DNA of 64,000 nt, taken from an uncultured Methanosarcinales archaeon (GTDB lineage Archaea; Nanobdellota; Nanobdellia; Woesearchaeales; SM23-78). Below, one piece after another: positions 1-52,841 of the stretch (position 1 is its first letter; the number at the start of each line of letters is the position of its first letter). The DNA is taken from assembly GCA_964354085.1 (NCBI GenBank), contig CAYGYA010000017.1:961-64960 (forward strand), read 5' to 3'. The translations under genes and the position numbers were made by a program. A model generated the notes under the pieces. It searched no databases and was not told the DNA's origin. It saw nothing but the letters and a program-made list of their open reading frames with translations.

Positions 1-730
1 GATGTATCTGTTGCTGTTGCATTAAGAGTATAAGTGGTGGTTGTTATGTTTGTGAAATTGGTTGGTTGGTTTATTGTTGTTGTTGGTCCTGTTCTGTCTA
101 TTGTTATGTTTGTGTGTGTGTCGTTTTGTCCTATGTTTCCTAGTGTGTCGTTGGCGTATGCTCTTATTTCATATGTTAGGCTGTCTTGTAGTCCTGTCAG
201 GTTCCATGTGCATATGTATGTTGTTCCTATTCCTGTGTTGTTTCTGCATGCAAGAGTCCATGTTGCTGTGCTGTTTTGTCTGTATAGGAATGTTACTGTA
301 CTTACTGCTGTCATGTCTGTTACTGTTGCATTGAGAGTGTATGTGTTGGTGCTTATATTTGTGAAGTTTGCCGGCTGGTTTAGTGTTGTTGTTGGTCCTG
401 TTCTGTCCAGGGTTATGTTAGTGTGAGTGTCATTATTTCCTAACTTGCCCCATGTATCATTAGCGTATGCTCTTATTTCATAGGTCTTTCCTTCAGGTAA
501 TGCTGATACATCCCAAGTGCATGTGTATGCTGGTCCTCCTGTTTTGTTAGTGCAGATTGTATGCCAACTGTCGCTTGAATTTTGCCTGTACATAAAGGTT
601 AAGGTGTCAACTGCTGTTGTGTCTGTTGCTGTTGCATTTATCAAATATGTACTTGAGCTGATGTTGGCGAAGCTGACTGGGCTTGTCAAAGTTGTTACAG
701 GACCTGTTGTATCAATATGTATTGTATAAT
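1..730 (-). repeat. Intragenic tandem repeat, period ~306-309 bp (~102 aa), two full copies plus one partial copy
   Basis: gttggtcctgttctgtc occurs at 84-100 and 393-409. gcgtatgctcttatttcata occurs at 154-173 and 463-482. Both pairs are offset by exactly 309 bp. A third, more diverged unit carries acaggacctgttgtatc near 699-715. Confidence 0.8.
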
Positions 731-3518
731 TGAACATGTAAGAGCCGCTTAAGGGCACAGTAGCATTATCCCAACAAATTATGTTCCAAAGAATGTTTCC
801 ATCAGGTAAGGTCGCGTTGATTATATTGGCACTGTTGTTTTGCACACTTGTTATGCTTGCGTTTGGAGCCCATGAACCAGTGGCATTAGTGTAGAGAGTG
901 CAATTGTTAAATCCTCTATCCTCACTTACTGTGAAATTAAATGAAATAGTTGATGAGCTTGTTATGTTAGTCATGTTACCAGGATAATTCAGAGCAGTAA
1001 CATTTGGAGGAAGGTTTGAGCTGTTATAATTGACAGTCACATAAATTTGTGTAACCCAGGCTAATCTGCTGGCAGAAGATGAATTTCTCAGGACTCCCCA
1101 TTCCATGTTGTTTATGGTAGTGTAATTCCATGGTTGTCCTGTTGCGGGATTGGTTGTGTAGTTCCATCCAGTAAGGCTATAGGTAGTCCAACTGTTTGAT
1201 AATGCTTGGGTGTTGCCATTATCATAATCAGTTCCTCCTTGTCTGTAGAATATTTCAAGACTGGCTGCTCCTCCTGTGTTTGATTTCATTCCTCGCACAC
1301 TAACAGCGACCCAATTGATAGCTAGAGGATTCTCGCTAAGATTCTGGAATGTGAAAGAATTCCTGCTAGTATCGTCGGGACTAGCTATGTATGTAGTGCC
1401 GTCGTCAGGAGTTGCTTCGGGGTCATCCACTGATTGCCATCGGGTAGCTGCCGGGCTACTGCCTGAGATTGTCCAGCTAACATAATTACCATCTCCGTCA
1501 GGGAGTTCATTTTCGCTTTGAGGGTCAACTGCAAGGTACCAAGGCCTTGCCTCATAGAAAATTCCAGAGTCATAGCTTACAAATGCCGGTCCTAGTTCGT
1601 ATAATTCTGGTGTTATTTTTGGTGGAGTTGCGCTGTAGCTTACAATAGAGTTGTTATTCAGGTTGCTCCATGTTAGATAAGTTTTGTTGTTACCGTTTGT
1701 TATTGTTGCTCCATTGCCATTTACTATTTCAAAACTGTCTGGCAAAACTTCTGTGAAGTTAAAGATTGTTGCGTTTGTGTGTGATATTATTCTTATGCTT
1801 GAGGTAAATGCTCCATTCCATGGGTCTGTTGTTGTTGGAGTGGTTCTAAGAATGTCGAACTCATAGTATGACTTTACTGTGAAGTATGAGTACATTGTAC
1901 TGTTGACATTATTTCCTTGAGCGCTCACTGATAAAGCATAGTTTCCTTCTAATGCTGTTTGGTTATAGCTAGTCTCGTATATCCCTCTACTGGTTTCTAT
2001 TATTTCTCCTCTTGCTGTGGTCAGATTAATAGTGCCATTGTCAGGAGCAGTTATTGTCAAGCTGACATCTGCGTTACTTACAAGGTGTCCCTGGGTGTCG
2101 AGCACCACCATTATTATTTCTGCTGTTTCTCCAGGATAATAAATTGGCTTTTTGGTGTTGATGCTGGCCACTCCTGTTTCTGCATAGCCAGGATCTTCAG
2201 GGCTTATTTCCAATTCATAATCCTGGCCCGGCACCAGGTCCATTATCTTGCTCCAGGTTCCTAGGCACGTCTGGGTTTCAAAGTCCCATTCCTTGCACTT
2301 CCATAATTCTGTGCCCTTTGCAGTTCCTGTGAGTGTTCCATTTGTGAAGTTTAGTGATGATGCATCAATTGCAAAGGCTTTAAGAACATTCTTCTTACCC
2401 CATCCTTTTCCCAAGCCTATATTGTTGAATGGGATTTCATCAATTCCAAGGCTGGTGTTGCGTGAAAGATTAAGCAATAGTTTTTTCAGCACTATTTTCT
2501 TGAATATTCTGTTTTGAGGGATGATTTGTGCAAACTCTGCTTGTTTGATGTCAAGAGTTGCGTTGCTATCATTAACATTAAGGCTTATCTCATTGTTCTG
2601 CTGGTCATAAAGAGTTATAGTAGCGCTTTCAGTAATTCCTTTGCTGCTGACTAATCTGATAACATTATCATTTTTGCCTTGTGGCTGTGGCGTTGGTTCA
2701 CAAGTCTCATTTGTTGAAGGTTGAGGAGTTAATTCTTGGGAGGATGGTTGATACGGTGTGGGTTGAGGAAGAGATTTTTCTAAAACTTGGAATTCATGTC
2801 TTTCTATTTCATTATTATCCTTATCTCTCAGAACTAAATAATGAGTTCCTATTCCTCTTGGTACGAACTTTATTTCTTTTAAGTCGCCCATGTATCTTTG
2901 AACAAAGCCTTGGTATTCATAGTACAATTTGTAATCCTGTTCCTCTGTTAACGACAAGCTAACGCTCGCAATAACAGGCTCTCCAATTGCATAAATTTCT
3001 TTATCAGTGAATATCTTTTTGACTATCTCATTGTTTTGGTTTGTTTCATTAACTTCAATTGTAGTATTTGTTTCATTGCTGGCTTGATTGCTGGTGTTGT
3101 TAATAGCCTCGTTTATTGTTTCATTGATGGTTTCATTTTCTTGTGCTGGTTTTCCTACATAGAAATCCAATGAATCAACAATCACCTGGTTTGTTTTGCT
3201 TGTTAGCTCAACCCTGTATGGTCCTTCTTCTTTTGGGTAGAAGTCAATATTGTTTTTCAGTTCTCCTCCGTACCTATAGAAATTTTGATTAGAGTAAACA
3301 CTCATATCATAATCATTGAGATTGGGTGATGTTATTATGAGAGTTACTTTTTCACCAACATCATAGTAAGGCTTCTCAACAGAGAGGTAAAGGAGCTTCT
3401 GCGGCTGGTCTTCGCTGAGGGTAAGGGTTGCGCTTGCTAGAATAAGGACTATTAAAGCCAGCAGAAGTCCTATGCTCCTCTTTTTTCTATCTGTTTTGTT
3501 TTGGGTTGTTGGTTTCAT
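1..3518 (-). CDS. Giant secreted/cell-surface adhesin-like protein with signal-anchor and Ig-like repeat modules; partial, the C-terminus runs off the left window edge (>1172 aa)
   Basis: ATG at 3518-3516 gives MKPTTQNKTDRKKRSIGLLLALIVLILASATLTL (hydrophobic signal/anchor). I hand-checked the frame at both ends (bases 59-3 read NFTNITTTTYTLNATATDT). It is missing from the ORF track only because no stop lies in the window. Dense N-x-S/T sequons. Three ~100-aa D(R/T)TGP...YEIRAYANDT modules sit at the edge. The + strand ORFs at 34-2962 are V/L/F/C-rich antisense shadows. Confidence 0.85.
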   Translation of the reverse strand, partial: MKPTTQNKTDRKKRSIGLLLALIVLILASATLTLSEDQPQKLLYLSVEKPYYDVGEKVTLIITSPNLNDYDMSVYSNQNFYRYGGELKNNIDFYPKEEGPYRVELTSKTNQVIVDSLDFYVGKPAQENETINETINEAINNTSNQASNETNTTIEVNETNQNNEIVKKIFTDKEIYAIGEPVIASVSLSLTEEQDYKLYYEYQGFVQRYMGDLKEIKFVPRGIGTHYLVLRDKDNNEIERHEFQVLEKSLPQPTPYQPSSQELTPQPSTNETCEPTPQPQGKNDNVIRLVSSKGITESATITLYDQQNNEISLNVNDSNATLDIKQAEFAQIIPQNRIFKKIVLKKLLLNLSRNTSLGIDEIPFNNIGLGKGWGKKNVLKAFAIDASSLNFTNGTLTGTAKGTELWKCKEWDFETQTCLGTWSKIMDLVPGQDYELEISPEDPGYAETGVASINTKKPIYYPGETAEIIMVVLDTQGHLVSNADVSLTITAPDNGTINLTTARGEIIETSRGIYETSYNQTALEGNYALSVSAQGNNVNSTMYSYFTVKSYYEFDILRTTPTTTDPWNGAFTSSIRIISHTNATIFNFTEVLPDSFEIVNGNGATITNGNNKTYLTWSNLNNNSIVSYSATPPKITPELYELGPAFVSYDSGIFYEARPWYLAVDPQSENELPDGDGNYVSWTISGSSPAATRWQSVDDPEATPDDGTTYIASPDDTSRNSFTFQNLSENPLAINWVAVSVRGMKSNTGGAASLEIFYRQGGTDYDNGNTQALSNSWTTYSLTGWNYTTNPATGQPWNYTTINNMEWGVLRNSSSASRLAWVTQIYVTVNYNSSNLPPNVTALNYPGNMTNITSSSTISFNFTVSEDRGFNNCTLYTNATGSWAPNASITSVQNNSANIINATLPDGNILWNIICWDNATVPLSGSYMFNYTIHIDTTGPVTTLTSPVSFANISSSTYLINATATDTTAVDTLTFMYRQNSSDSWHTICTNKTGGPAYTCTWDVSALPEGKTYEIRAYANDTWGKLGNNDTHTNITLDRTGPTTTLNQPANFTNISTNTYTLNATVTDMTAVSTVTFLYRQNSTATWTLACRNNTGIGTTYICTWNLTGLQDSLTYEIRAYANDTLGNIGQNDTHTNITIDRTGPTTTINQPTNFTNITTTTYTLNATATDT

Positions 3519-3546: not shown

Positions 3547-4140
3547 TCATGGTATCAGCTTTGAGTACCTCAGTTTTAGCTCGTCCTCTATCTCTCTGAT
3601 GTACTCGTAATACTTTTCATAGCCCTGCAGGATGGTGTGCTTTTCATGCAGTTCCTTGGTTTTCAGCATCTCTTTGAGAAAACTCTCTTTGGTGTGAATC
3701 TCTGTCTTGTAATCCTTTATTACCTGCTTTAGAATTGCTTTTTCAAACTGTTCCTTTTCTTCTGGCTTGTCAAGCACAAAAAGAATCCTGTCCCTGCTTT
3801 TGAGCACAAGCTGGAGGTTGATGATTCTCTTGGCTTTGTCAATATAATCAATTACTTGCTGCAGCTCAGGATTTTGTTTCAGCTCAGATGCTTTCTTGTG
3901 TATCTCATTGAGAATGAGCAGATAAATGGTTTCATCATTCTTGAGGTTGAGTGAGCACAGATATGAGCGGCCTATTATGGTCTTCCTAAAGATGTTGTTC
4001 TTTATGAGAAGCGTGACTTTCTTATTGATATAAGGATATTTTTTCCCTAGCTTATGTGCTATCTGGTTTATGCTGTATAGAGAACTGATGTCCTTGGAGT
4101 ACAGGCTGATTATTTCCTGCTCTAGCTTGTTGCCAATCAC
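3547..4140 (-). CDS. Hypothetical protein with N-terminal winged-helix-like DNA-binding region and K/E-rich helical C-terminal half
   Basis: GTG start at 4140. The N-terminal ~70 aa (SLYSINQIAHKLGKKYPYINKKVTLLIKNNIFRKTIIGRSYLCSLN) looks like an HTH plus beta-wing. No family recognised. It sits directly upstream of the giant adhesin gene. Confidence 0.5.
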   Translation of the reverse strand: MIGNKLEQEIISLYSKDISSLYSINQIAHKLGKKYPYINKKVTLLIKNNIFRKTIIGRSYLCSLNLKNDETIYLLILNEIHKKASELKQNPELQQVIDYIDKAKRIINLQLVLKSRDRILFVLDKPEEKEQFEKAILKQVIKDYKTEIHTKESFLKEMLKTKELHEKHTILQGYEKYYEYIREIEDELKLRYSKLIP

Positions 4141-4396: not shown

Positions 4397-4726
4397 TTAT
4401 GCTGTTTTAATCTCTTTAAGAACAATATCTGCTCCGCACAAAACCTTTGGCTGTTTACTGCATTCTGGGCATTCAAACAAGGTAAAATCATGGTGCTGGG
4501 CAAGTATTCGCGGAGCTCCTTCATAGCCACACTCGCACTTAACCTTGGCTTTGATGTTGTTCACAATTATCTTAAAATCAGCCATTGCCCTAAGAATTTC
4601 TTTGAGCTCATTTGCTGGCAGATGTGCAAGTTCCCCAACTTCCAGGGTTATTGATTTTATTTTTTTTCCCTTTGCCTTTGCCCTGGCTTCTTTTAGAATT
4701 TCTTTTGCAATAATGGTTTCGTGCAT
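4397..4726 (-). CDS. hypA: HypA/HybF-like metallochaperone (Ni-binding MHE N-terminus plus Zn ribbon)
   Basis: Starts MHETIIAKEIL. Has a CxC...CPxC zinc site (KCECG ... ECPECS). At 109 aa, the layout matches the HypA family. Confidence 0.7.
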   Translation of the reverse strand: MHETIIAKEILKEARAKAKGKKIKSITLEVGELAHLPANELKEILRAMADFKIIVNNIKAKVKCECGYEGAPRILAQHHDFTLFECPECSKQPKVLCGADIVLKEIKTA

Positions 4727-4770: not shown

Positions 4771-5910
4771 TTATGGCTGTTTTTCTTCTTCCTCATCACT
4801 CAGCCTGCTGGTGATTATCCTTCGCTTCTTTAGTATGTCCCCTAGCCCTAGCTCTGCTGATGGCTTTGCTTCTTTTTTTGGCTCTTCTTTTTGCTCAAAT
4901 GGTTTTTCTTCCATTTGAGGTCTCTTTGCAATACCATCTATTCTTGATAATCCATCTGTCTTAGATACTCCATCTATCTTGTTCAGATACTCTGATTCTG
5001 CTCCAGGCATTTTTTCCTCTCTAACCACGGCCTCATCAAGCATCAAGCCACGGCCTCCCCTTAGCTCGCTCTTTATTTTCTTTACAGTCTCTTTTAGCTC
5101 TATTTTCATGTGTTTTGAACGCTCATCAAGCAGTTTCATAATATTGCCTGTGTGCTTCTCAAATTCTGTGAACCTGTCCATGAGGCTTCCGAACTCCTTT
5201 TTCTCTGCTTTGTTGCTTAGCTGGAGCTTCATATTGTCAAAGTCTCCTTGCATGGCGTGGAAGGTTTTCTCAACCTCGTCAATTGTGCGTTGGAATTTAT
5301 CAAATTCTGCATACTTCTTTTCTAGGTCAAGGAAGATGCTTTCTGACTTGTCAGCATGCCTCTCAATAACTGCCTCAACTTTCTTAATCTCAAGAATCTC
5401 TCCCTTAACCTCCTCATTAAGCTTGACAACCTGCTCTATTCCCTTGTAGAAGTTCATCTGCTGCCTTATCTTTTTCAGCTCTTCCATAAGGTCTCTCATC
5501 ATTGCTTCATTGCTCTCAATATTAGCTTTAAGAGCTTCTGCTTTTCCTTCCTGCTTTCTTATCTCAATCATCAGTTTCTCAGGTTGCACGCTCTCAACAA
5601 GGTCAATTGCTTTGGTAGCGCTCACCTCTATCTTAGACATGGTCTTGTTAGTATCCATTATCATGCCACGCAATTCTCCCATCTGCTCGCTTACTCTTGA
5701 AAATCTCTCAGAATTAGCCTTCCTAATTTCATTCAGGGATTCTAGCTGGGCTTTTATCCTGGTAAGCTCTATGTCTACCTTTGCATTTCCAGAACTGAAG
5801 CTGTCTTCTTTTTTCTCCTGGCCAGCAGCTGACGCCTCTGCCTCTGTCTGGGCAATCCCATCAGCTATGATGTCATCTCTGCTCTTCTTTTTTCCTCCAA
5901 ATAAGCCCAA
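4771..5910 (-). CDS. Coiled-coil protein (about 379 aa), function unknown
   Basis: TTG at 5910 is preceded by the SD GAGAGGTGA and gives MGLFGGKKKSRDD. The longer track ORF (to 5985) begins with TTG inside the end of the upstream gene. E/K/L heptad-rich throughout, with no TM segment. Confidence 0.6.
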   Translation of the reverse strand: MGLFGGKKKSRDDIIADGIAQTEAEASAAGQEKKEDSFSSGNAKVDIELTRIKAQLESLNEIRKANSERFSRVSEQMGELRGMIMDTNKTMSKIEVSATKAIDLVESVQPEKLMIEIRKQEGKAEALKANIESNEAMMRDLMEELKKIRQQMNFYKGIEQVVKLNEEVKGEILEIKKVEAVIERHADKSESIFLDLEKKYAEFDKFQRTIDEVEKTFHAMQGDFDNMKLQLSNKAEKKEFGSLMDRFTEFEKHTGNIMKLLDERSKHMKIELKETVKKIKSELRGGRGLMLDEAVVREEKMPGAESEYLNKIDGVSKTDGLSRIDGIAKRPQMEEKPFEQKEEPKKEAKPSAELGLGDILKKRRIITSRLSDEEEEKQP

Positions 5911-5974
5911 TAGTTCACCTCTCTTTTTTTTATTAAATTGATAATGAAATATTTTAATATATTTATGAATTCGA

Positions 5975-6481
5975 TTAATCTTCAATTACCTTTTCTGTTT
6001 CCTTTGCTACTCTCTCCCTTAGTTTTTGGATAATGTCTTTTTTCACATTAAGCTCTTCTTCTTTTAATGCTTCTTGTAGCTCTGATTCTGCCCTTTTTAA
6101 AATTTGCTCTACTTCATCAAAATCTCGTTGTTCATGGGTCACTTCTGCCATTTTGATCTTGGCATTAGCATTCCTTAGCACCAGGTCTGCTATTAGAGGG
6201 TCTTTGCCTGCCCTCCTCGCATCGCTTATCCTGGATTTTAGCTCTTTTAATGCTTCATTCAAGCGCGTTATTCTTGTCTGATGCATCTCTTCGCTTTTCT
6301 CATCAGGCAAAAGCTTTTTTTTAGCATCCAGCCTTCTCAGCTTCTCATCATAAGCTTCTTCTATTTTCCTGTTGGTCTCGTTTACTTCTTTAACAAGCTT
6401 TCTAATTATAAATCCGTCATCCTCTTGTGCTTCATTGCTTTCTTGCGCTTCATTATTATCCATGCTCTGTTTCTCTTCCAT
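5975..6481 (-). CDS. Acidic coiled-coil protein (168 aa), function unknown
   Basis: ATG at 6481, 10 nt after the stop of the ATPase gene. Acidic N-terminus (NNEAQESNEAQEDD) followed by long helical K/E-rich segments. Confidence 0.6.
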   Translation of the reverse strand: MEEKQSMDNNEAQESNEAQEDDGFIIRKLVKEVNETNRKIEEAYDEKLRRLDAKKKLLPDEKSEEMHQTRITRLNEALKELKSRISDARRAGKDPLIADLVLRNANAKIKMAEVTHEQRDFDEVEQILKRAESELQEALKEEELNVKKDIIQKLRERVAKETEKVIED

Positions 6482-6491
6482 GCTCTATTTT

Positions 6492-9400
6492 TCACCCGCT
6501 CTCTAATGCTTGTAATAGGTTGTTCTTGTCATGAATATTACTTATCTTTTCTGCTAGCTCATCATTATGCAGCCCCTTCTTAACCCAGTCTGCGAACTTA
6601 TTGTAATCTTCGCCAACATAATGCTTGAAAGTGATTTCATCCATCTGGCTGATAATTTTCTTCAGCTCTCCTATTGTTTTTATCTCTTCGCCATTGTCCA
6701 GCTTGAAGGTATATGTTATGGTTGCTTCTATTCCATTAGTCTCTTTTTCTTCTTTATTCACTTTTTTCTCAAGATCATGTTCTGATTTTTTCTTCTCACT
6801 TTCAACTATTTCTGGTGGCTTAGCCATTTCCTCAAAAGCCTTTGCCTCATTTAACTTCTTTACACTGTCAATATTAAGCTTTGGCAGTGGTTTGTTATCC
6901 CTTCTAAGAGCCAGGAGGTCGAGCATCTCTGGTTTTGTGCGGGCTAATTTAAGGTGGTCTGCTAGTTCCTTGTCCTCAACAGCATTCTGTACCCAGTCTG
7001 AAAAGTCATTCTTGGCTCCACTAACGTGCTTTTCAAAGTCCTCGTCTTTCATGGCTGATATCTCGTCAAAAAGGCTAGCCATGTTTATTACTAGCATACC
7101 GTTCACGAGCTTGAGTATTTTTTCAGGGCTCACATCCTTTCTGAAAAGCGCTGCTCCGCTTACTTCTTTTTTCTCTCCTTCTTCTGATTTTGCAGATTCT
7201 TTTTTCATCTCAGCCTCAAACTGCTCTCTTGCCTTTTTGGCTTTTGTAATTGCTTCTTGCAACTCTTCTTCTGAGACCAGTTTTTTCTCGAGCTTCTCAG
7301 GTTTTTTACCTAGCTTAGCCCAGTTCTTCTCTATTCTAGGGGTTAGGCCATCAAGGTATATCTGTACCATGTTGAAGTTGCCTGTTTTTACCTTGTCAGT
7401 TGCGAGCTTAAGCTCAAGCTTTAGGTCAAACACGTCAAGCCCTTCTTTTTCCAGCTGCTCAAGCTCGAATTGCAATTGGTCTATCTTGTCGTTGTATTCA
7501 TTGTACTTCTCAATTTCTTCATCAGTAAGCCTTTGCACACTGTGCAGCAGCGGCCTGAAGGCGATGAAATAAGGCTTACCTCTATTATAGTGTGGGTTCT
7601 CTACCATCCCGCTACCAACAGTTGCCTTTACTAGAGATCGCAGGACTTCTTCTCCGTATTTTACCCTGATTCTTTCCAGGTCTCCTTCATCTCTTGTCCT
7701 CATCTGGATTTCTGTGTTAATGTTAGCTTTGATAGTTCCGACAAAGTCGCTCAAAACCTGTGATATCAACAGCATGCCAAGTCCCCATTTTCTGAACTCT
7801 CTGCATCCTCTTTCTATCTGGAGGAATCCTTCTCCGCTTCCTCCGAATTTGGGCAGCAGCCTGTGAACCTCATCATAAACAAACAATACTTTGAGAGTTC
7901 TGCTCTCTCCAAAGTTTGCCCTGAAAATCTCCCTGATGCTGTTTGATACAAACATATCCATTTCTTTTGGCTCGAGCTTGTGGCAGGCAAAGATTTGTAT
8001 CTCTCCAGGCTTCACATATTTCTTGATATCAATTATTTCTCTTGGATTTGATATCTGCCTTATATTCCCGCTAAATGCTCTTGCATCAGTTGGCTTCATG
8101 CCAAAGAATGGATAGAGTGCAAACATGGTCTTGTCTGTACATTTCCTAAGCATGCCTGTCCACTGAGCTGTTGGGTCAAACACAATCACAGCCACTCCTT
8201 TCAGAAGCATTTCTTCTACAATAGCCTGGGCAGATACTGTTTTTCCTCCTCCTGTGCTTCCTGCATCTATGGTGTGAGTCATAAAGGCTTCAAGGTTGAA
8301 ATAGGTTTTGTGGTCTGTCTCTGCTATTTTTCCAACAAATATGCTTCTTGGCCCTGGCTTTGGTAGCTCATTAAGCTCTACTTTGAGATGGAATTTCTTT
8401 TTGGATTCTATTCTCTTTTTTATTTGCCAGTAAGCTAATAGCCCTAGAGCAACAAGTATTAGGAAGAGCAAGACATGCCATACTCTTATTGGGCCTACCA
8501 GCAATATCAAGTACCAGGGAGTGCTTATCTTGAACATAGTGCTTGTTCCTGCGCTTAATCCGAGATAGTTGGCAGTGACTCTGAGTATGTAGTCTCCGGG
8601 CTTTGCATCTCTCGGTATTATGGCATTCTTGAGCATAGAGAATGATGTTTTTAGGAATACGTTGGTTTCATAGTCCCACAGTGTTTCTTTTCCCTCAACA
8701 TCCTGGATAGTATAATATAGCTGCACAGGGTATTGTAAGTCTGTTAGCAGGTTTCTCAAATCAGTTTTGAATTTTAAGGTGTCACCCGGATAGGCTATTT
8801 TCTTGTTGAGCTCAAGGTCTATTAGTAATGCTTGCACAGGAAGTTTTTCTTTTGACAGTATCTCAATGGTGATAGGTATGCTTGCATTTATATCTCCGCT
8901 CATGAGCAGAGTACCGTTGTATACCCCGACATCCCCGACTCCGAATATGGTAATAGTCATGTAGTCAGAGCCATGAGGCATGAGCACCATTGATATCTTA
9001 TCCATTTTTATGAGGTTACTGACATTTCCCTCAATTGTGAAATAAACAGTTGCTGGCTTTTCCTTGAAGCTGAAAAGGGTAATCTTTTCCTGAAGGAAGT
9101 TTCCTAGGCGCAGTTTCCTGTTAATCTCAGATATTGAGACCACATAATCTGTTCCCTCAATTTTTTGTGGCCTTTGGATTACTGGAGGCATATCATATTC
9201 TGCTGTCTTGGTTTTTGTCCCTTTCGCATCGACTCCTGTATCAAAGGTGTTTCCTGGTTCATCATAGCCAGGCCCTATGCCTGGATTCGGCGGATTAATA
9301 GGCTGCTTTGCCACCATGACAATATTGTGCATAGTTCCGTTTCCTCTTGTTATGTTCACGTTGCTAATATATGTCTCGTATCCTGTTTTCATTGCATAAA

Positions 9401-10283
9401 TAGTCCAGTTGCCCTCTCTTGCAGTCATATTATAGAAGCCAGTTATATTATTGCTATAATTCACAGCATCAGCAACTTGTACTATCACTGATCCTAATGG
9501 GTTGCCAGAGGTATCAGTAACATTACCATATACATAACCAGCCCAGGGTGCTGAGCCTTCTCCTGCTGGGCAATTATCTGTCGGATCAGCCCAGACATAA
9601 TAATCCTGCCATGTGCTGTAATGGATAGGTAGGATTATTTGATAGTTTAGACGCGAGCCTTGGAATCCATTAATAGGAGTATCAAGTATTTTTGTCACAA
9701 TTACGATATTGCTATTATTATCTTTCAATATGCCTGTGACAAATGCTGTTGAATTGATATTGTTCCATGAGTACGTATACATGGCAGGAGCAGTAATGGT
9801 TTGCTCACCTACATTGAAGGTCGCACTTTGTGTGAATGTGTTAGCTGCTGAAGAGAAATCTGAGCTGCTAATGTTCAGGTATGCATCAATTTCTGCTGTT
9901 GTTGCTGCCCTGAGAGAATTGAAAAGTATTTGGTCTTCTGGCGTCATGCTTGCATATATTTCATGCTCCTTATTCGGCTCAAAGCATTCGAATAGCAGGT
10001 GCTTCTCATTATCAACTTGCGTGAGAGTAACATTCCCTGTCAGGTTAAAGTACCATTCAGTAGTCCAGCCAACCCCCCATGCTGTTCCATAAAGAGCAGA
10101 CCAATGAGTAACGTCATAAACTATTGCTAAGTCTATTTCGCTGACTGTTCCTCCTTCTGTTTCAAGATAAGCTGCATAGCCCAGGAACTGGCTAACAATA
10201 ACCAAGCCTTTTACAGCCAGTATTAGCATTATGATTATCAGAATCCTAAATGTAATCTCCTTTTGTTTTGTTCTTACAACCAT
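6492..10283 (-). CDS. Bitopic membrane protein: ~600-aa extracellular Ig/CarboxypepD_reg-like domain, TM, cytoplasmic HerA/FtsK-superfamily (DUF87-like) P-loop ATPase, coiled coil, duplicated C-terminal helical domain
   Basis: TM1 is FRILIIIMLILAVKGLVIV. TM2 is WHVLLFLILVALGLLAYW. Walker A is DAGSTGGGKT (nt 8238-8261). Walker B is VLFVYDEVH (nt 7861-7890). A HerA-like EFRKWGLGMLLISQ motif is present. The extracellular part contains GNVTDTSGNPLGSVIVQV...GYETY (carboxypeptidase-regulatory-like fold). Confidence 0.75.
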   Translation of the reverse strand: MVVRTKQKEITFRILIIIMLILAVKGLVIVSQFLGYAAYLETEGGTVSEIDLAIVYDVTHWSALYGTAWGVGWTTEWYFNLTGNVTLTQVDNEKHLLFECFEPNKEHEIYASMTPEDQILFNSLRAATTAEIDAYLNISSSDFSSAANTFTQSATFNVGEQTITAPAMYTYSWNNINSTAFVTGILKDNNSNIVIVTKILDTPINGFQGSRLNYQIILPIHYSTWQDYYVWADPTDNCPAGEGSAPWAGYVYGNVTDTSGNPLGSVIVQVADAVNYSNNITGFYNMTAREGNWTIYAMKTGYETYISNVNITRGNGTMHNIVMVAKQPINPPNPGIGPGYDEPGNTFDTGVDAKGTKTKTAEYDMPPVIQRPQKIEGTDYVVSISEINRKLRLGNFLQEKITLFSFKEKPATVYFTIEGNVSNLIKMDKISMVLMPHGSDYMTITIFGVGDVGVYNGTLLMSGDINASIPITIEILSKEKLPVQALLIDLELNKKIAYPGDTLKFKTDLRNLLTDLQYPVQLYYTIQDVEGKETLWDYETNVFLKTSFSMLKNAIIPRDAKPGDYILRVTANYLGLSAGTSTMFKISTPWYLILLVGPIRVWHVLLFLILVALGLLAYWQIKKRIESKKKFHLKVELNELPKPGPRSIFVGKIAETDHKTYFNLEAFMTHTIDAGSTGGGKTVSAQAIVEEMLLKGVAVIVFDPTAQWTGMLRKCTDKTMFALYPFFGMKPTDARAFSGNIRQISNPREIIDIKKYVKPGEIQIFACHKLEPKEMDMFVSNSIREIFRANFGESRTLKVLFVYDEVHRLLPKFGGSGEGFLQIERGCREFRKWGLGMLLISQVLSDFVGTIKANINTEIQMRTRDEGDLERIRVKYGEEVLRSLVKATVGSGMVENPHYNRGKPYFIAFRPLLHSVQRLTDEEIEKYNEYNDKIDQLQFELEQLEKEGLDVFDLKLELKLATDKVKTGNFNMVQIYLDGLTPRIEKNWAKLGKKPEKLEKKLVSEEELQEAITKAKKAREQFEAEMKKESAKSEEGEKKEVSGAALFRKDVSPEKILKLVNGMLVINMASLFDEISAMKDEDFEKHVSGAKNDFSDWVQNAVEDKELADHLKLARTKPEMLDLLALRRDNKPLPKLNIDSVKKLNEAKAFEEMAKPPEIVESEKKKSEHDLEKKVNKEEKETNGIEATITYTFKLDNGEEIKTIGELKKIISQMDEITFKHYVGEDYNKFADWVKKGLHNDELAEKISNIHDKNNLLQALESG

Positions 10284-10322
10284 TTGTTTTTCATCTCATC
10301 AATAATATTCTCTTATATTTCA

Positions 10323-13300
10323 TTAAATCAAATTCTTTGTATTCTCAATTGCGATTTGTATCTTGTTGCCAAGGGCTACGAGGGTCGGATGAATCAGTTC
10401 CTTGGTATCATCATCAAGCTGAGTGTATGCTGCTTCAATCCTCTTGTATTCTTCAAGAGAAGCAGACAGCTGGCCGTTGTTAAGCAAACCCTGGATATTA
10501 TTCACCATTACTTTCAGCTCAGCAATATTGCCCTGGGCTTGCATTGCATCGCAATATTCCTTCACCCTCACTGCTGTTTGGGAAATATTTTCATATACAT
10601 CATTCTTTGCAAGAGTTGATAGCTCGCTGTAAGCATCTTTTGCTTCATTATAAAGATCAATGGCTTTCTCATGATCGCCTCCGTCAAGATTGTCATTAAT
10701 CTCATTGAGTATGACGCTGATATAGTGAAGGCTTTTCTTGCCATAAATTCTGTAAGCAAGATACCTGGCTGTGTTGATGCCGTCGTATTTAATTCCTGCA
10801 AACACCAAGCCGCCTAGCAGTATTATTATTACTGGTATGAACATTATTCCTTTGCCTGATGGCATTTTCAGGCCCTTAATTGAGAAGCCAGTTATTTTCT
10901 GTTTAGCCTCAATTGACGCCGGGTCTACAAGCACCACAGTTTTTATTTTCTTCAGCAGTTCCAAGTCTTGATTAGCTTCAAAATAATAAGTTATGGTGGT
11001 GTCGCCTTGTAAGCCAAACTTGATGATTGGGTCTTGCATCACCACTTCATATTTCTGTGAGCTCATGATGTTATCTGCTTTCTCAGCAACATCTTTCGGT
11101 ATTATTTCCATGATGAATGCGCCTTCTGTGATGTTATAGGTTTTTATCTCCCTAAGAATAATGCTTGCATCGCTTTGAGTCCCATCTCTGTAAGTAACCC
11201 TGGCAGTTTTTACCTTGCTGGAGATTAGGACTTCTTGCTGCAAATCATTAATGAATTTCAGGAGCTCTTTCTTGCTAATGCTTAGCGAAACATTGTTTAT
11301 CTCAAGGTACTGGTCGAGCAACGCCTCTATCTCATCTGGTTTTATATAGTCAACAAATGCATCTTTGTTAAGCAGCTCAATACTTATAGGTGTTTTTTGA
11401 TAGGCTTGTTCTGCGTTCAGCACCATTTGTTCCCCTTCTGCCTGCTTATCAGCATCTGTTAGGTCTGTCCTGAAATTAAGAGCATCAAGATCTCTTATGG
11501 TGTTCTTGAAAACAGATATGCTTTCATCTATAATGCTTGAAATCCCAAGAGCTTCTGCCGCTTCTTTCTCATCTTTTGGCAGGGCATTAATGTTATCAAG
11601 GATTTGCTGGAATTCCTTAACCCAGTCGTCATATGTCTTGAAATTCCCGCTACTTGCCTGTGGCTCAGTTGTCTGGGGGGTTGGTAATGCAGCAAGGCTT
11701 CCTACATTGAACACCCAGCTAGTACTCATTCCACTTTTTCCAATCTTATCAACGCATTCAACTTTCCACCAGTAGCTTTTGTTCTCAAGCTCTATAACCC
11801 CGAATGCATGCTCAGCACTGTCACTTACCTCTATACTTCCTAGGTAGGCAAAGAAGCCATCATTTTTCTCATTGATATAGAAGCTGCAGTTAAGTGTCCT
11901 GTTGTATTCTGCTTTGAAAGCCAGCTCTGTTGTTGTGCCTGTTATTCCTGAATTATTTCCTGGCCTTATGAGAGTGATTATTGGCTCCTGGTTAATTACT
12001 GGCTCAAGGAACAGAGTAATGGTTTCGTCTTTTGTAATGTCTAAATCACTGTGGTACATTGTATAATTTTCTTTTAGGACGAATATTCCCTTTTGCCCTG
12101 GTGTTAGGTAATATCCTATTTCTCCATTTGCATCTGTTTCTTTTTCTTCATCATCAATATCAACAGTTGCTCGTGAAATAACTCCTTTTGTTACTGAGTT
12201 TTTTACAACTATTTTTACATAATAAGTATTGTCAACAGTTATGGTTATGCTGCTGTTCTTGGTGTTGTTATAAGCATCTTTAACTGAGACTGTATTGACA
12301 TAGTTCCCTGCTGTCGTATATGTTATGTTGGTTTTTTTGCCATTCTTTACTGAGCCATCGCTTAGATGCCAGGTGTAATTAAGAGTGCCAACTCCTCCTT
12401 TTGCATCTGCTTTAAGAATGACTGGAACATTCCTTCTCTGGTCATCATCAGTATCAATATCTATCTTGATATTGTTTTTTATTTCATAATTCAGTGCTTT
12501 TGCTTCTGTGAAGCCGCTGTAGTTGAAGAAAGCCTCAAGCAGATATTTGCCCTCGTAATTAGTGAACATAAGATATTCCTGGAATGGATAATTCATTACG
12601 TTCTGGGCATTGACAGGAACTTTGCATTCTACAAATCCTGGCTTGTCAGGGCAGACTTCTACCCTTATGCTTGTTCCCTGCGGAGCACTTATGGTCATCA
12701 GGATGTTATCTCCAATATTGTATTCTATTCCCGGGATGGTTATGTTAAATGTTGGCTGTGCTGGCAGCGCTTCAATCCTGAATGTCCTTGTTTCGCTTGT
12801 CTCTGAGTTATTGACATAATCATAGCAGGTTATTCCCCAAGTGTAATTTCCTGTTTCTAATGTGCTTAGCGTGGTTGTTGCAGGCTCGCTGTTTTTGGCT
12901 GTGATGCTTTTGTTCACGTTGTTGTTCAGTGTGATGTCGCAGCTGATGTTCTCTGCAATGTTGTCAAGCACAACAAAGTTGATATCTACACTAGATGCAT
13001 TTATCTGAGTCTTATTAATAGGGAAGAAGAGCACTATGGTTGGCTTTAAACTGTCAATTATGATGGTTCTTTCTTCGCTGCTCTCAGAATTGTTGTTATA
13101 ATAGCATTCAATTCTCCAGCTGTGGTTTCCTGTTGTTAGGTTTTCTGTGAATGCATTGAATCCCGGGTTGGTTATGTTGGTGTTTGTTGCTTTTGTCTCT
13201 GAGTCTATGATGAGCTTGCAATTAGTAACAGTTAGGTTGTCAAGGCCGACATAGTAATCAAAGGTTACGATTTTGTTTGAGTAGGTGTTGTTTGCTGGGG

Positions 13301-13409
13301 TCACAAGGTCAATTGTTGCTGAGGCTAATGATGTACAGAATAGCGCAAAGAGTGCTGCAACTAGCAACAAGCTAATTCTCTTTTTTGCTATTTTGTTTTG
13401 CTCACTCAT
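10323..13409 (-). CDS. Large type-I membrane surface protein with Ig-like modules, PKD domain, CarboxypepD_reg-like domain, C-terminal TM and helical cytoplasmic tail
   Basis: Signal peptide RISLLLVAALFALFCTSLASA. Three modules end in G(N/H)(Y/S)WxIxC. PKD-like GTLNYTWHLSDGSVKNGKKTNITYTTAGNYVNTVSVKDAYNN. TM is IMFIPVIIILLGGLVFAGI, followed by a ~150-aa helical tail. The ATG at 13409 overlaps the upstream stop (ATGAGTGA). Confidence 0.8.
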   Translation of the reverse strand: MSEQNKIAKKRISLLLVAALFALFCTSLASATIDLVTPANNTYSNKIVTFDYYVGLDNLTVTNCKLIIDSETKATNTNITNPGFNAFTENLTTGNHSWRIECYYNNNSESSEERTIIIDSLKPTIVLFFPINKTQINASSVDINFVVLDNIAENISCDITLNNNVNKSITAKNSEPATTTLSTLETGNYTWGITCYDYVNNSETSETRTFRIEALPAQPTFNITIPGIEYNIGDNILMTISAPQGTSIRVEVCPDKPGFVECKVPVNAQNVMNYPFQEYLMFTNYEGKYLLEAFFNYSGFTEAKALNYEIKNNIKIDIDTDDDQRRNVPVILKADAKGGVGTLNYTWHLSDGSVKNGKKTNITYTTAGNYVNTVSVKDAYNNTKNSSITITVDNTYYVKIVVKNSVTKGVISRATVDIDDEEKETDANGEIGYYLTPGQKGIFVLKENYTMYHSDLDITKDETITLFLEPVINQEPIITLIRPGNNSGITGTTTELAFKAEYNRTLNCSFYINEKNDGFFAYLGSIEVSDSAEHAFGVIELENKSYWWKVECVDKIGKSGMSTSWVFNVGSLAALPTPQTTEPQASSGNFKTYDDWVKEFQQILDNINALPKDEKEAAEALGISSIIDESISVFKNTIRDLDALNFRTDLTDADKQAEGEQMVLNAEQAYQKTPISIELLNKDAFVDYIKPDEIEALLDQYLEINNVSLSISKKELLKFINDLQQEVLISSKVKTARVTYRDGTQSDASIILREIKTYNITEGAFIMEIIPKDVAEKADNIMSSQKYEVVMQDPIIKFGLQGDTTITYYFEANQDLELLKKIKTVVLVDPASIEAKQKITGFSIKGLKMPSGKGIMFIPVIIILLGGLVFAGIKYDGINTARYLAYRIYGKKSLHYISVILNEINDNLDGGDHEKAIDLYNEAKDAYSELSTLAKNDVYENISQTAVRVKEYCDAMQAQGNIAELKVMVNNIQGLLNNGQLSASLEEYKRIEAAYTQLDDDTKELIHPTLVALGNKIQIAIENTKNLI

Positions 13410-13677
13410 GCTCTAGTTCCTCAATCATTCTTTTCAGCCGCCTAACCATCTCTTCTTTTATCATATTCTCTGTCTTGAAATCAGTTTTTTTCTCTGCAGG
13501 CTTTTCTTCTTCAAGAGGCTTTATCTCTCCCAGCCTTATCTTGTATTTTCTTACCTGACTCTTGATTACGCTTCTTACTTCCTCGCTTATGTCTAAGAAA
13601 TGGTTATTTTTTGCCAGATCTCTTAGGGTCTGAACCAGGGAGGATGGCATCCTCACACTTACGATAGAAGTTACCAT
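13402..13677 (-). CDS. Ribbon-helix-helix (CopG/Arc-like) DNA-binding protein with K/E-rich tail
   Basis: N-terminal beta-strand plus two helices: IVSVRMPSSLVQTLRDLAKNNHFLDISEEVRSVIKSQV. The start overlaps the upstream stop (ATGGTAA at 13671-13677). Confidence 0.7.
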   Translation of the reverse strand: MVTSIVSVRMPSSLVQTLRDLAKNNHFLDISEEVRSVIKSQVRKYKIRLGEIKPLEEEKPAEKKTDFKTENMIKEEMVRRLKRMIEELEHE

Positions 13678-13877
13678 CCTTCACCCCCTTGCCCAGATTT
13701 TTTTTCCTCATGCAGTTGGCTCTGCACATATTCTCTGGCGAATTCTCGTATAGCTTCTGAGCGCGATTTGAAAACTTTCTTTTTTACCAATTGGTCTAGT
13801 TCTAGAATTAGCTCGTCAGGCAATCTGATGTTGAGTATTTCTGTCTTCTTTGTCAACCTTCTACCCCTGTATGACAA
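13671..13877 (-). CDS. Ribbon-helix-helix (CopG family) DNA-binding protein
   Basis: ILNIRLPDELILELDQLVKKKVFKSRSEAIREFAREYV is a textbook RHH pattern. TTG start at 13877; the exact start is uncertain. Confidence 0.7.
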   Translation of the reverse strand: MSYRGRRLTKKTEILNIRLPDELILELDQLVKKKVFKSRSEAIREFAREYVQSQLHEEKKSGQGGEGW

Positions 13878-13928
13878 ATGTATGTCATATGTATGCTTTT
13901 TGTCAGTTTTCTGTATGCCTGAGTTCTC

Positions 13929-13964
13929 TATACTATGCGAATAGTATACGTAATCGTATAGTAT
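13929..13964. promoter_or_regulatory. Inverted/direct repeat set upstream of the RHH operon (candidate RHH operator)
   Basis: TATACTAT-gcga-ATAGTATA at 13929-13948, plus a third half-site TATAGTAT at 13957-13964. A further inverted repeat ATGACA-aatgta-TGTCAT at 13871-13888 spans the predicted start codon. Confidence 0.4.
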
Positions 13965-14071
13965 TCCCTATGTATTACACTAACTTATATATAAATATTT
14001 TGATTTAGAAGACATATCTTCACTTGGCAATAGAAACCTTTAAATGCCATGAGATAGTTCTTTTTTTTTAG

Positions 14072-14518
14072 GTGATGACTATGGCTGATGCAAAATTCAA
14101 TATATTCTCCAAAGGCTTAGTAAGCTGTTTAGTGGAAACCGCAGGCAAGATACCCAGGTATGCAAGAGGAGAAATACCAGCATATGAAGAGCTGGAAGTC
14201 ATGGCTCAAAATTCTACAATGCCTGTATACCTTGATTTGACAACGCGCCAGCAACAGGATTATGAACTTCTTAGGAGAAACTTTAAGGAATTATTGAAAC
14301 AATACGGCGGGAATAATAAAAAACCAAGTCCAGAGTTGACTCCTGCTGAACACTTAATCTTGCTCCATGCAAGAAGAGCTTCTGGTCATAAAGAAAAACC
14401 AGAGCCTCAATTATCTGAAAGAGAGGGTAGAATCTATGATACACTGAGCTTTTGGCTGAATGAATACGCAAGGAATGCTGCTCTGAGGGCAACAAGAAGA
14501 AAAAAACCTGATTTCTAA
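14072..14518 (+). CDS. Hypothetical protein (148 aa)
   Basis: ORF with GTG/ATG starts at 14072-14083. No motif recognised. Basic C-terminus. Confidence 0.4.
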   Translation: MMTMADAKFNIFSKGLVSCLVETAGKIPRYARGEIPAYEELEVMAQNSTMPVYLDLTTRQQQDYELLRRNFKELLKQYGGNNKKPSPELTPAEHLILLHARRASGHKEKPEPQLSEREGRIYDTLSFWLNEYARNAALRATRRKKPDF

Positions 14519-14568
14519 GCATTGTCTTATCGCAAAATATTAAAAGCCCAGCCTAGTCTAGAATAACC

Positions 14569-15066
14569 ATGGCAGAAGAAAAAGATAAAGACAAAGAAAA
14601 GGAAAAAGATATGACAAAAGAATACGAGGCTCTGAAGAAGAAATATTACTTGCCAGAGCTTAAGGAACTGGACAAGGAGTTCTGTATTGGAAAGCTAGAG
14701 GACACGCAGTTCATCCTAAGAACAATTCTTGGCAAGATAATGGATAGGGTAGAGCTGGTCTTTAAGGCCTTGAGTGATATTGTCCAGCCTGCAGAGAACA
14801 ACCTAGCAACCATGTATGAGGCGGAAGTGTTTTCTGATGATGAAAAAAAGCATATCTTTGACCTGATGAAAAAATTAGCTTATACTCACAGGGACTTGAT
14901 AATCAAGGATTATGAGTACAGCGATGATACTGCAGCAGTTATCATACTCAAGGCTTTCAAGGAATGGAAAGAAATGAAAAAGGATGTTCTTGGGATTATG
15001 GAGAAGCTAAGGGATTCTTGGAAGAATAATAATGAGTCCAAGGCAACTGAAGGATATTTTGGGTGA
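14569..15066 (+). CDS. Hypothetical acidic helical protein (165 aa)
   Basis: ATG start, K/D/E-rich N-terminus. No motif recognised. Directly precedes adk. Confidence 0.45.
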   Translation: MAEEKDKDKEKEKDMTKEYEALKKKYYLPELKELDKEFCIGKLEDTQFILRTILGKIMDRVELVFKALSDIVQPAENNLATMYEAEVFSDDEKKHIFDLMKKLAYTHRDLIIKDYEYSDDTAAVIILKAFKEWKEMKKDVLGIMEKLRDSWKNNNESKATEGYFG

Positions 15067-51499: not shown

Positions 51500-51505
51500 T
51501 TTTTA

Positions 51506-52840: not shown

Positions 52841-52841
52841 A

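Follow-up and report, generated by a model that had tools for sequence, protein, structure and literature searches.

We analyzed a stretch of 64,000 nucleotides (nt) of archaeal DNA (contig CAYGYA010000017.1, positions 961 to 64,960 of the forward strand; the whole stretch is called the window here) with respect to six genes that lie head to tail on its minus strand at 4771-13877. From first to last, these genes encode a ribbon-helix-helix (RHH) protein (RHH1), a probable second one (RHH2), a surface protein with a PKD-type ectodomain (PKD protein), a membrane protein with an ATPase domain (ATPase) and the helical proteins CC1 and CC2. Together with the region upstream, the locus comprises the following features (lengths in amino acids, aa; TM, transmembrane):

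13868-13995, minus strand: promoter/leader region with operator-like repeats, reaching the RHH1 start codon
13671-13877, minus strand: RHH1, 68 aa, first gene of the operon, ribbon-helix-helix DNA-binding protein (CopG/NikR-N/CdrS-like)
13402-13677, minus strand: RHH2, 91 aa, probable ribbon-helix-helix, charged linker and conserved C-terminal amphipathic helix
10323-13409, minus strand: PKD protein, 1028 aa, type-I membrane protein
6492-10283, minus strand: ATPase, 1263 aa, signal/TM1, all-beta ectodomain, TM2, HerA-clade core, helical bundle/coiled coil and two DUF5752-type repeats
5975-6481, minus strand: CC1, 168 aa, acidic, all-helical and soluble, at a variable operon position
4771-5910, minus strand: CC2, 379 aa, soluble, coiled coil

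The window is an ordinary chromosomal stretch of a DPANN archaeon of Woesearchaeota/Nanoarchaeota type and also carries GatD/GatE, CDC48, TruD, RtcB, ThrRS and adenylate kinase (Adk). Its guanine-cytosine (GC) content of approximately 0.40 is uniform, and the composition of the operon is the same as that of the remainder. All close homologs of the 1263-aa ATPase come from Woesearchaeota or Nanoarchaeota assemblies, which fits the small-genome archaeal host that a first-pass annotation of this DNA had assumed.

The genes are tightly packed. The stop codon of RHH1 overlaps the start codon of RHH2 (ATGGTAA, 13671-13677), RHH2 and the PKD gene overlap in ATGAGTGA (13402-13409), and the PKD gene is separated from the ATPase gene by 39 nt and the ATPase gene from CC1 by 10 nt. 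The first-pass annotation had described the same six genes with these coordinates, overlaps and spacers, and only the start of CC2 had to be corrected. The longest open reading frame (ORF) of CC2 spans 4771-5985; judged from the sequence, the start is most likely not at 5985 but at the TTG at 5910, which is preceded by GGTGA and opens an N-terminus (M-G-L-F-G-K-K-K) conserved in approximately 60 orthologs. With this start, CC1 and CC2 are 64 nt apart and do not overlap.

A scan of one genome per species yielded at least 581 matching stretches, and the best 80 loci were analyzed. All of these are from Woesearchaeota, Nanoarchaeota or Pacearchaeota assemblies; some are titled 'Methanosarcinales' and were taken as mislabels, as they show the same identity and synteny. 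Gene positions were counted by comparing the window proteins with all ORFs of the loci by BLASTP, including only loci with enough flanking sequence. The gene order was kept in 50-53 of 52-57 related loci: upstream of the ATPase gene lie the PKD gene (53 of 57 loci), RHH2 (50 of 52) and RHH1 (50 of 52), and CC2 is found downstream in 47 of 59 loci. The recurring order is RHH1-RHH2-PKD-ATPase-(variable small gene)-CC2, and one locus (L004) contains the identical block in another chromosomal context. The stop/start overlaps are conserved in related loci as well, between RHH1 and RHH2 in 82%, between RHH2 and PKD in 96% and between PKD and ATPase in 55%. The block is syntenic in related genomes, as had been anticipated, and its six genes are one system, beyond chance juxtaposition. 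The conserved gene overlaps suggest that the PKD and ATPase genes are co-transcribed, in line with the earlier assignment of adhesin and ATPase to the same transcription unit.

The ATPase and its membrane topology

The following parts of the ATPase were delimited:

8514-10181, minus strand: ectodomain, residues 35-590
8424-8513, minus strand: TM2, residues ~591-620, motif GPIxVWH, followed by the basic QIKKRIESKKK on the cytoplasmic side
7284-8348, minus strand: HerA-clade P-loop ATPase core, residues 646-1000
6912-7145, minus strand: DUF5752-type repeat 1, residues ~1047-1124, matched by Pfam DUF5752
6501-6707, minus strand: DUF5752-type repeat 2, residues ~1193-1261

The core contains a Walker A motif (AGSTGGGKT, with K681) and a Walker B motif (LFVYDEVH, with D804/E805), and G675, G678, G680, K681 and D804 are invariant in 16 and in 44 homologs. 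R831/K832 in the motif EFRKWG are likewise invariant and align with R455/K456 of DUF4297-HerA (8xau), whose role as the arginine finger of that protein was demonstrated by mutation (PMC11291478); R831/K832 are therefore predicted to form a trans-acting arginine finger. The window proteins were searched against Pfam, NCBIfam, PDB, PADLOC and PHROG, and AlphaFold2 (AF2) models were compared with known structures using Foldseek. The AF2 model of the core (residues 600-1010) has a mean predicted local distance difference test (pLDDT) score of 84. Its best match in PDB is the Sulfolobus HerA 4d2i (E 6.5e-11), next come SIR2-HerA and HerA-NurA, and then FtsK 2ius (E 3.8e-8), TcpA 6o1w and VirB4 4ag5. 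The top 50 matches are almost all HerA, FtsK, TcpA, VirB4 and DndH, and the matches in BFVD are HerA-like, FtsK-like and A32-like ATPases. By its motifs, the aligned arginine finger and the modeled fold, the cytoplasmic part reads as an ATPase of the HerA clade, within the 'pumping' FtsK-HerA superfamily, that is catalytically complete, and the earlier prediction of a pumping-type ATPase stands on these grounds.

In the Pfam search, the ATPase matched DUF87 (1e-6), HerA_C (8e-5), CarboxypepD_reg (8e-5) and DUF5752 (1.5e-7). It lies outside every characterized family of the superfamily and scores under every curated family cut-off. The HerA models of NCBIfam reached 20-25 bits against cut-offs of 800-850 (HerA_Thermprot 22 against 800), SXT_TraD reached 25.8 bits against 366, and CedD, the best NCBIfam match by E-value (9e-7), reached 27.9 bits against 600 and covers residues 651-712 only. 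Databases name the family only 'DUF87 domain-containing protein' or 'DUF853 family protein'. In the literature on DPANN or Woesearchaeota with HerA, FtsK, DUF87 or DUF5752, of which coverage was incomplete, no description of this operon or architecture was found.

Besides TM2 at residues ~591-620, hydropathy indicates an N-terminal hydrophobic segment at residues 12-34, which is probably a signal peptide or an anchor; the ATPase is a single- or double-pass membrane protein. The predicted ectodomain contains 15 N-X-S/T sequons and the cytoplasmic part none, and basic residues lie on the sides predicted to face the cytoplasm. At TM2, P589 and W602 are invariant. In the AF2 model, the TM helix (601-628) leads through a loop and two short strands straight into the P-loop strand, and no HAS barrel is present. 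The tether between TM2 and the core has only approximately 25 residues, with the helix at model residues 2-29 and the first core strand at model residue 48. The DNA-contacting pore residues of DUF4297-HerA sit in an insertion subdomain, outside the region that can be aligned with the ATPase.

Besides a conserved N-terminal beta module (~37-233) and a CarboxypepD_reg-like sandwich, the ectodomain comprises a disordered linker rich in Pro and Gly and, next to the membrane, two immunoglobulin (Ig)-like domains. Its AF2 model (mean pLDDT 78) is all-beta, and Foldseek returned only tandem Ig/FnIII-like proteins, among them RbmA and proteins with ASH or MG domains. For the ectodomain, a fold of the enzyme or lectin kind was considered and rejected, all of it being beta-sandwich with tandem Ig/FnIII proteins as the only matches. 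The N-terminal module with its conserved Cys, Trp and Asp residues also occurs as stand-alone ORFs of approximately 250 aa, some of which lie between the PKD gene and the ATPase gene (loci L003, 9203-9961; L013, 7407-8165; L021, 16435-17202; L057, 315-1076).

After the core, the ATPase continues with a helical bundle/coiled coil and the two DUF5752-type repeats. The repeat unit of approximately 70 aa (also P0060, P0066 and P0073) is a mobile module that opens small ORFs downstream of the ATPase gene in many loci. An exhaustive search found it in 1218 protein clusters at E <= 1e-3, and a word-indexed search gave none; the Pfam model DUF5752 appears to hold two to three such units. Fusions of DUF5752 were found only to HerA-like and KaiC-like (RecA-superfamily) ATPases and gave no functional clue.

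The partner proteins and the operator-like leader

The PKD protein has a signal peptide, an Ig/PKD-type ectodomain with a match to PKD_4 of Pfam (E 6e-9), a juxtamembrane alpha/beta region, a TM segment at ~853-875 and a helical cytoplasmic tail of approximately 150 aa, for which no family match was found. Its ectodomain contains 25 sequons and the tail one. With the hydrophobic segments and the sequon counts of both proteins (15 against 0 in the ATPase, 25 against 1 here), the ectodomain-TM-cytoplasmic topology of the earlier annotation is retained as a prediction. Residues ~220-1020 can be aligned in approximately 60 of 66 syntenic orthologs, at 22-58% identity.

CC2 orthologs are 39-72% identical, and the conserved N-terminal motif is probably a membrane-targeting sequence. 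A CC2 profile gave only generic coiled-coil matches in PDB and Pfam. A PspA/ESCRT-III-like reading of the MGLFGKKK N-terminus had been considered and was dropped, as no profile supported it. CC1 has neither a TM segment nor a match in Pfam or NCBIfam; homologs are present in 43 ORFs (26-65% identity). In other loci, its position is taken by one or two different small proteins, which often open with a DUF5752 unit.

RHH1 matches RHH_1 of Pfam above the cut-off (E 5.5e-9; 36.1 bits, cut-off 20.5). The NCBIfam models for the NikR N-terminal domain and CdrS reached 30-33 bits, under their cut-offs; for CdrS, the haloarchaeal cell-division regulator, the E-value is 3.8e-7 and for aCcr1 1.2e-3, both below the cut-offs. 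RHH2 stays below the cut-off of RHH_1 (E 0.066; 13.6 bits), and the best PDB matches of a 25-sequence profile are all RHH domains of NikR, at weak E-values of 0.05-0.13. With its conserved motif IVSVRMPxSLVxELKxLAxxNHFLDxSEExRSI in a strand-helix-helix pattern, RHH2 is probably a ribbon-helix-helix protein as well. Two RHH regulators had been annotated here; the first is borne out by its Pfam match, and the second is a probable one.

No start codon of RHH1 was found upstream of the TTG at 13877, and 13878-13964 is a non-coding leader/operator. A TATA-like TTTATATATA (13986-13995) lies upstream of the leader repeats ATACTAT, CGTATACT and TAGTATAG at 13928-13964. The hexamer CATACA occurs four times (13912-13917, 13890-13895, 13879-13884 and 13868-13873), at spacings of 22, 11 and 11 nt. 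Within 150 nt upstream of RHH1 it is enriched 15-fold (61 observed against 4.0 expected; 52 loci), and it is not enriched across the whole window. Such a phased repeat is the expected picture of an RHH-repressed operon and suggests autoregulation, with the RHH proteins as the presumed ligands of the repeats.

Conservation, relatives and neighboring genes

Identities within the same genome pairs are 69-92% for the ATPase core, 36-58% for Adk and 36-69% for TruD, and Adk is kept as a neighbor of the operon in 20 loci. Since the identity of the core exceeds that of Adk and TruD and the Adk neighbor is kept, the operon is read as a core locus that is inherited vertically and very strongly constrained, and not as an island. 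At 50-60% identity, the core family reaches Micrarchaeota, Altiarchaeota, Aenigmarchaeota and Pacearchaeota. No relative was found among IMG/VR contigs.

A minimal one-TM ATPase of 402 aa, 53% identical to the window core, is encoded in locus L091 (8001-10752) and is followed by a TPR + AAA+ ATPase that resembles PAN, CDC48 and CdvC; its host seems to be a metabolically richer archaeon, judged only from the gene content (PNT transhydrogenase, OapB/C and GAPDH nearby). In locus L092 (8001-11421), a CC2 homolog (hidden Markov model E 8.9e-26) comes after a minimal TM-ATPase, and a ParA/MinD-type ATPase comes next, a possible hint towards a role in segregation or division. In Micrarchaeota, a CC2 homolog also lies beside the ATPase (E 8e-39). 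Since CC2 adjoins the ATPase there and beside the minimal form, ATPase and CC2 appear to be the oldest pair. 'Short' ATPases of 366 aa (Micrarchaeota) and 443 aa (Altiarchaeota) were rejected as such, as they are truncated or split calls of long ectodomain-TM-ATPase ORFs. Locus L089 (3042-9101) contains an open frame of 2019 aa with the ectodomain-TM-ATPase layout, and in L090 (2-2971) an upstream ORF carries the Ig-TM part.

Some more distant loci contain two tandem paralogous ATPases (L006, 7756-15226; L079, 8181-15070; L067, 9191-19150; L007, 22602 onwards). In the short paralog (~780 aa), a signal peptide that looks cleavable is combined with only the two Ig domains next to the membrane, a TM segment, the core and a single DUF5752 unit. 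The long paralog (1400-1740 aa) resembles the window ATPase and contains many CarboxypepD_reg repeats.

Downstream of the operon, three further features lie on the same strand:

4397-4726, minus strand: HypA-like gene (Pfam HypA, E 7e-13), a neighbor only
3547-4140, minus strand: 197-aa protein, earlier labeled wHTH (winged helix-turn-helix), a facultative downstream unit with the giant adhesin
1-3518, minus strand: giant adhesin-like surface protein, >1172 aa, a 1184-codon open frame cut by the window edge

The first-pass annotation had let these genes continue the series on the same strand. The HypA match and the shared strand hold, and the gene itself lies outside the system: HypA occupies the downstream position only in the three closest loci. 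A full hyp set follows the operon in locus L001 (17822-24203: HypC, HypD, HypE, HypA, HypF and a NikR_C protein), and the HypA of the window therefore looks like part of a neighboring hydrogenase-maturation locus. The wHTH label of the 197-aa protein found no support, with no match in Pfam, NCBIfam or PDB. Its gene follows the operon in 16 of 43 loci and is preceded in the window by an AT-rich intergenic region of 256 nt. The giant adhesin has a signal-anchor segment and 58 sequons, and in 25 of 43 loci the operon is followed by a protein of >600 aa that matches either it or the PKD protein. Both the 197-aa gene and the giant adhesin are frequent neighbors that are facultatively linked and lie outside the core. 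For the Ig module that PKD protein and giant adhesin had been said to share, the support is weak (BLASTP E 1e-4). The plus-strand 'ORFs' at 34-729 (e.g., 34-426 and 62-334) have a high content of V, L, F and C, lie antisense to the giant adhesin gene and are almost certainly not genes.

On the other side of the operon, two ORFs without family matches (148 aa and 165 aa) lie divergently on the plus strand at 14072-15066, upstream of adk. The 165-aa ORF is conserved beside the operon in many relatives (25-69% identity) and may therefore share the divergent promoter region. Farther away, a co-directional cluster on the minus strand (49709-54479) encodes a protein of 596 aa with a VWA domain, a MoxR-like AAA_5 ATPase of 461 aa and a protein of 545 aa with a polysaccharide-deacetylase domain. 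Next to it, at 54486-55670, lies a 394-aa protein with no assigned family. Neither tRNA genes nor Rfam families were detected in the window. A scan of the window for sigma-70 promoters and terminators gave counts at the level of shuffled sequence, the sigma-70 model being uninformative for an archaeon.

Comparison with known motors and possible functions

HerA is the best fold match of the ATPase, and the two have in common their Walker A and Walker B motifs, an arginine-finger motif with RK (EG/F-RK-[YFW]-G) and a C-terminal helical bundle. HerA differs in its N-terminal HAS barrel, in place of which the window ATPase has a TM helix and an Ig-like ectodomain and is integral to the membrane. 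HerA furthermore has a NurA, SIR2 or DUF4297 partner, whereas none is encoded in the operon; NurA, Mre11 and Rad50 were not found in the operon or the syntenic loci. The absence of NurA, Mre11, Rad50, PilB and VirB11 that the first-pass annotation had reported was reproduced for the larger window ORFs that were scanned.

The coupling proteins of type IV secretion systems (T4SS; TrwB/VirD4/TraD and TcpA) also have an N-terminal membrane anchor directly before a ring ATPase. TcpA is among the top fold matches of the window core, and the models TraD and TrwB_AAD_bind give weak matches. Coupling proteins, too, have RHH proteins encoded next to them, namely accessory factors of the TrwA/TraY/TraM type. 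In contrast to the coupling proteins, the window ATPase matches only over the P-loop (TrwB_AAD_bind E 0.0097, residues 669-709), and their all-alpha domain was not recognized. They have a short extracellular loop and are encoded on plasmids or integrative and conjugative elements, whereas the window ATPase carries a multidomain stalk of approximately 560 aa and belongs to a conserved chromosomal core locus. Relaxase, VirB4, VirB6 and pilin genes were not found in the operon or in the loci inspected.

CedB and CedD of Sulfolobales are a paralog pair of membrane-anchored HerA-clade ATPases that are needed for DNA import (PMC11868833). The tandem paralogous ATPases of some relatives are reminiscent of this pair. 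The Ced system differs in its VirB4-like N-terminal domain, in CedA/CedA1/CedA2/CedE, in the Ups pili and in its phylum; the window ATPase is without these and has an Ig-like ectodomain instead. The analogy to CedB, which the first-pass annotation had drawn, holds at the superfamily level only.

Concerning the function, we tentatively propose that one autoregulated operon encodes a membrane-integral ring motor complex that threads a polymer to or across the membrane; we regard this as a real possibility and stop short of calling it probable. Six copies of the ATPase would form a ring with its N-terminal face against the membrane, where the HAS barrel sits in HerA. The TM helices of ATPase and PKD protein would surround an extension of the central pore, and the Ig-like ectodomains of both proteins would form an extracellular stalk or cage. 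The DUF5752 repeats, the tail of the PKD protein and the membrane-targeted CC2 with the variable CC1 might dock on the ring or regulate it. ATP hydrolysis would thread the polymer through the ring, across or to the membrane. The polymer would most likely be DNA, since HerA, FtsK, CedB/CedD and the T4SS coupling proteins all move DNA. The RHH pair would bind the phased CATACA repeats and repress its own operon, and, like the RHH accessory factors of conjugative coupling proteins, it might in addition pass DNA on to the motor. The geometry would be nearer to that of the T4SS coupling proteins than to that of FtsK, since the N-terminal face of the ring abuts the membrane and FtsK uses a long linker. 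Nucleotide scavenging and exchange with a host are candidates for the purpose. The more specific claim that hexameric HerA motor, Ig stalk and PKD partner are an unrecognized class of envelope machine, a DPANN surface conduit which moves DNA or another polymer between the cell and its host or environment, a counterpart of competence or conjugation, we consider unlikely.

The first-pass annotation had gone further and seen a combined surface attachment and macromolecule-translocation machine in this block. Structure, family and synteny agree with that view and support it in part, but no channel-forming polytopic protein, pilin or relaxase is present in the operon; a function in macromolecule translocation, by one envelope-spanning apparatus, would be plausible. 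Several observations weigh against the ring motor complex as proposed. No polytopic channel (VirB6-, CedA- or ComEC-like), pilin, relaxase or nuclease was found in the operon or the syntenic loci. If the N-terminal segment of the ATPase is cleaved, a hexamer would provide six TM helices plus those of the PKD protein, few for a pore for double-stranded DNA (dsDNA). Minimal one-TM forms of the ATPase exist without ectodomain or adhesin partner, and L001, a close relative, has an unrelated 1156-aa protein in place of CC1 and CC2. Finally, the very high conservation of the motor and its stable position fit housekeeping at least as well as host interaction.

A housekeeping role, for example an FtsK-like one, is a serious rival because the core is more conserved than Adk and TruD and its context is stable. 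In this case, the membrane-tethered ring would act at the division site, where it would clear chromosomal DNA or segregate it, with CC2 and CC1 as membrane scaffolds, the RHH proteins as cell-cycle regulators of the CdrS/aCcr1 kind, and ectodomain and PKD protein as a link to the remodeling of the septal envelope or S-layer. The vertical inheritance next to Adk in 20 loci points in this direction, as do the relatives of 50-60% identity in other DPANN phyla and in the richer archaeon, where the minimal form combines TM and ATPase without adhesins. The below-cut-off matches of RHH1 to CdrS and aCcr1 and the ParA/MinD gene directly after the CC2 homolog in one locus are consistent with it, and the amphipathic, basic N-terminus of CC2 resembles the membrane-targeting sequences of divisome scaffolds. 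FtsK and SpoIIIE are likewise membrane-anchored hexameric dsDNA pumps of the same superfamily, and 2ius is among the fold matches. However, they have a four-helix TM domain, a long linker and a gamma domain that reads KOPS (FtsK-orienting polar sequences), whereas the window ATPase has one or two TM segments, lacks the gamma domain and gave no match to FtsK_SpoIIIE in Pfam. The long linkers of FtsK and SpoIIIE let the ring act on cytoplasmic DNA, and the short tether of the window ATPase stands against such a use. Furthermore, cytoplasmic DNA pumping leaves the conserved Ig-like ectodomain of approximately 560 aa and the obligatory PKD partner unexplained, and RHH1 resembles CdrS no better than NikR. 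We rate an FtsK-like pump as somewhat unlikely.

The ATPase might alternatively handle proteins in the manner of VirB4 or EssC/EccC and energize, for the cell surface, the secretion, membrane extraction, insertion or turnover of proteins. Its clients would be CC1/CC2-type proteins, the PKD protein or the giant adhesins, and it would build or maintain an S-layer anchor, an adhesion stalk or an attachment organelle. VirB4 and TcpA are among the fold matches, the ATPase is translationally coupled to a fast-evolving, sequon-rich and C-terminally anchored surface protein, and giant adhesins are often found beside the operon (25 of 43 loci). The variable small all-helical proteins encoded directly downstream are like substrates of type VII secretion systems. 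On the other hand, the nearest structural relatives are dsDNA translocases, the ATPase lacks the multiple ATPase domains and FHA domains of EssC, and no signal or secretion motifs were identified. CC2, with its membrane-targeting-like N-terminus and 39-72% identity, is too conserved for a typical secreted effector. A parallel is offered by the pT26-2 plasmid family's core module (Thermococcales/Methanococcales), in which a HerA/VirB4-like ATPase is paired with several membrane proteins, one of them with CarboxypepD_reg, and for which DNA transfer or secretion was proposed (PMC6972569). No sequence similarity of that module outside its own family was reported (PMC6972569). Along with CedB/CedD and the layout of the coupling proteins, this uncharacterized module is among the nearest functional analogies; it differs in being plasmid-borne or integrated, with an integrase, 12 different genes and separate ATPase and membrane domains. 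Altogether, we would not expect a protein-handling motor to be the answer.

It is also conceivable that nothing is threaded and that the ATPase is an ATP-driven receptor or force transducer, in which shifts of the ring move or cluster the ectodomains of ATPase and PKD protein as an inside-out control of adhesion. Both large proteins are indeed receptor-like type-I proteins with an Ig ectodomain, one TM segment and a cytoplasmic domain, the operon lacks a gene for a channel component, no enzyme fold is seen in the ectodomain, and DUF5752 repeats are also found on KaiC-like regulatory ATPases. Such a function has no known precedent in the FtsK-HerA superfamily, whose characterized members all thread a polymer, and we regard it as quite improbable.

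A mobile-element or anti-virus module, be it a HerA defense system or a module for transfer or packaging of a plasmid or virus, is largely refuted and hardly credible: mad8 matches the ATPase core in PADLOC (E 7.5e-15), several defense HerA models and PHROG families (terminase and unknown function) match weakly, and upstream of the block in L004 lie an integrase gene and a restriction-modification system, but the other six proteins were unmatched in PADLOC, the effector partners of SIR2-HerA, DUF4297-HerA and MADS systems (SIR2, the DUF4297 nuclease, mad1-7) were not found beside the ATPase, the operon encodes no effector nuclease, SIR2 or methyltransferase, no IMG/VR relative exists among the contigs searched, the composition is uniform with the window, and a stable context with conservation beyond that of housekeeping genes is the opposite of defense islands.

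Returning to the proposed ring motor complex, what is new is the ectodomain-TM-HerA architecture together with its set of partners within the membrane-anchored motor systems of the FtsK-HerA superfamily. A large part of archaeal diversity belongs to the DPANN archaea, most of which are thought to live attached to hosts, without synthesis of nucleotides, lipids and amino acids. We know of no dedicated machinery for uptake from a host in Woesearchaeota. The operon is a strong candidate, being present in several hundred species-level genomes, vertically inherited and equipped with a motor that is more conserved than neighboring housekeeping enzymes. It joins an extracellular adhesin-like stalk to a predicted cytoplasmic polymer pump and may be a transfer machine or the missing archaeal analog of FtsK, either of which would be new biology. 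If the surface conduit were true, the operon would provide a molecular handle on how DPANN archaea without nucleotide synthesis feed on their hosts.

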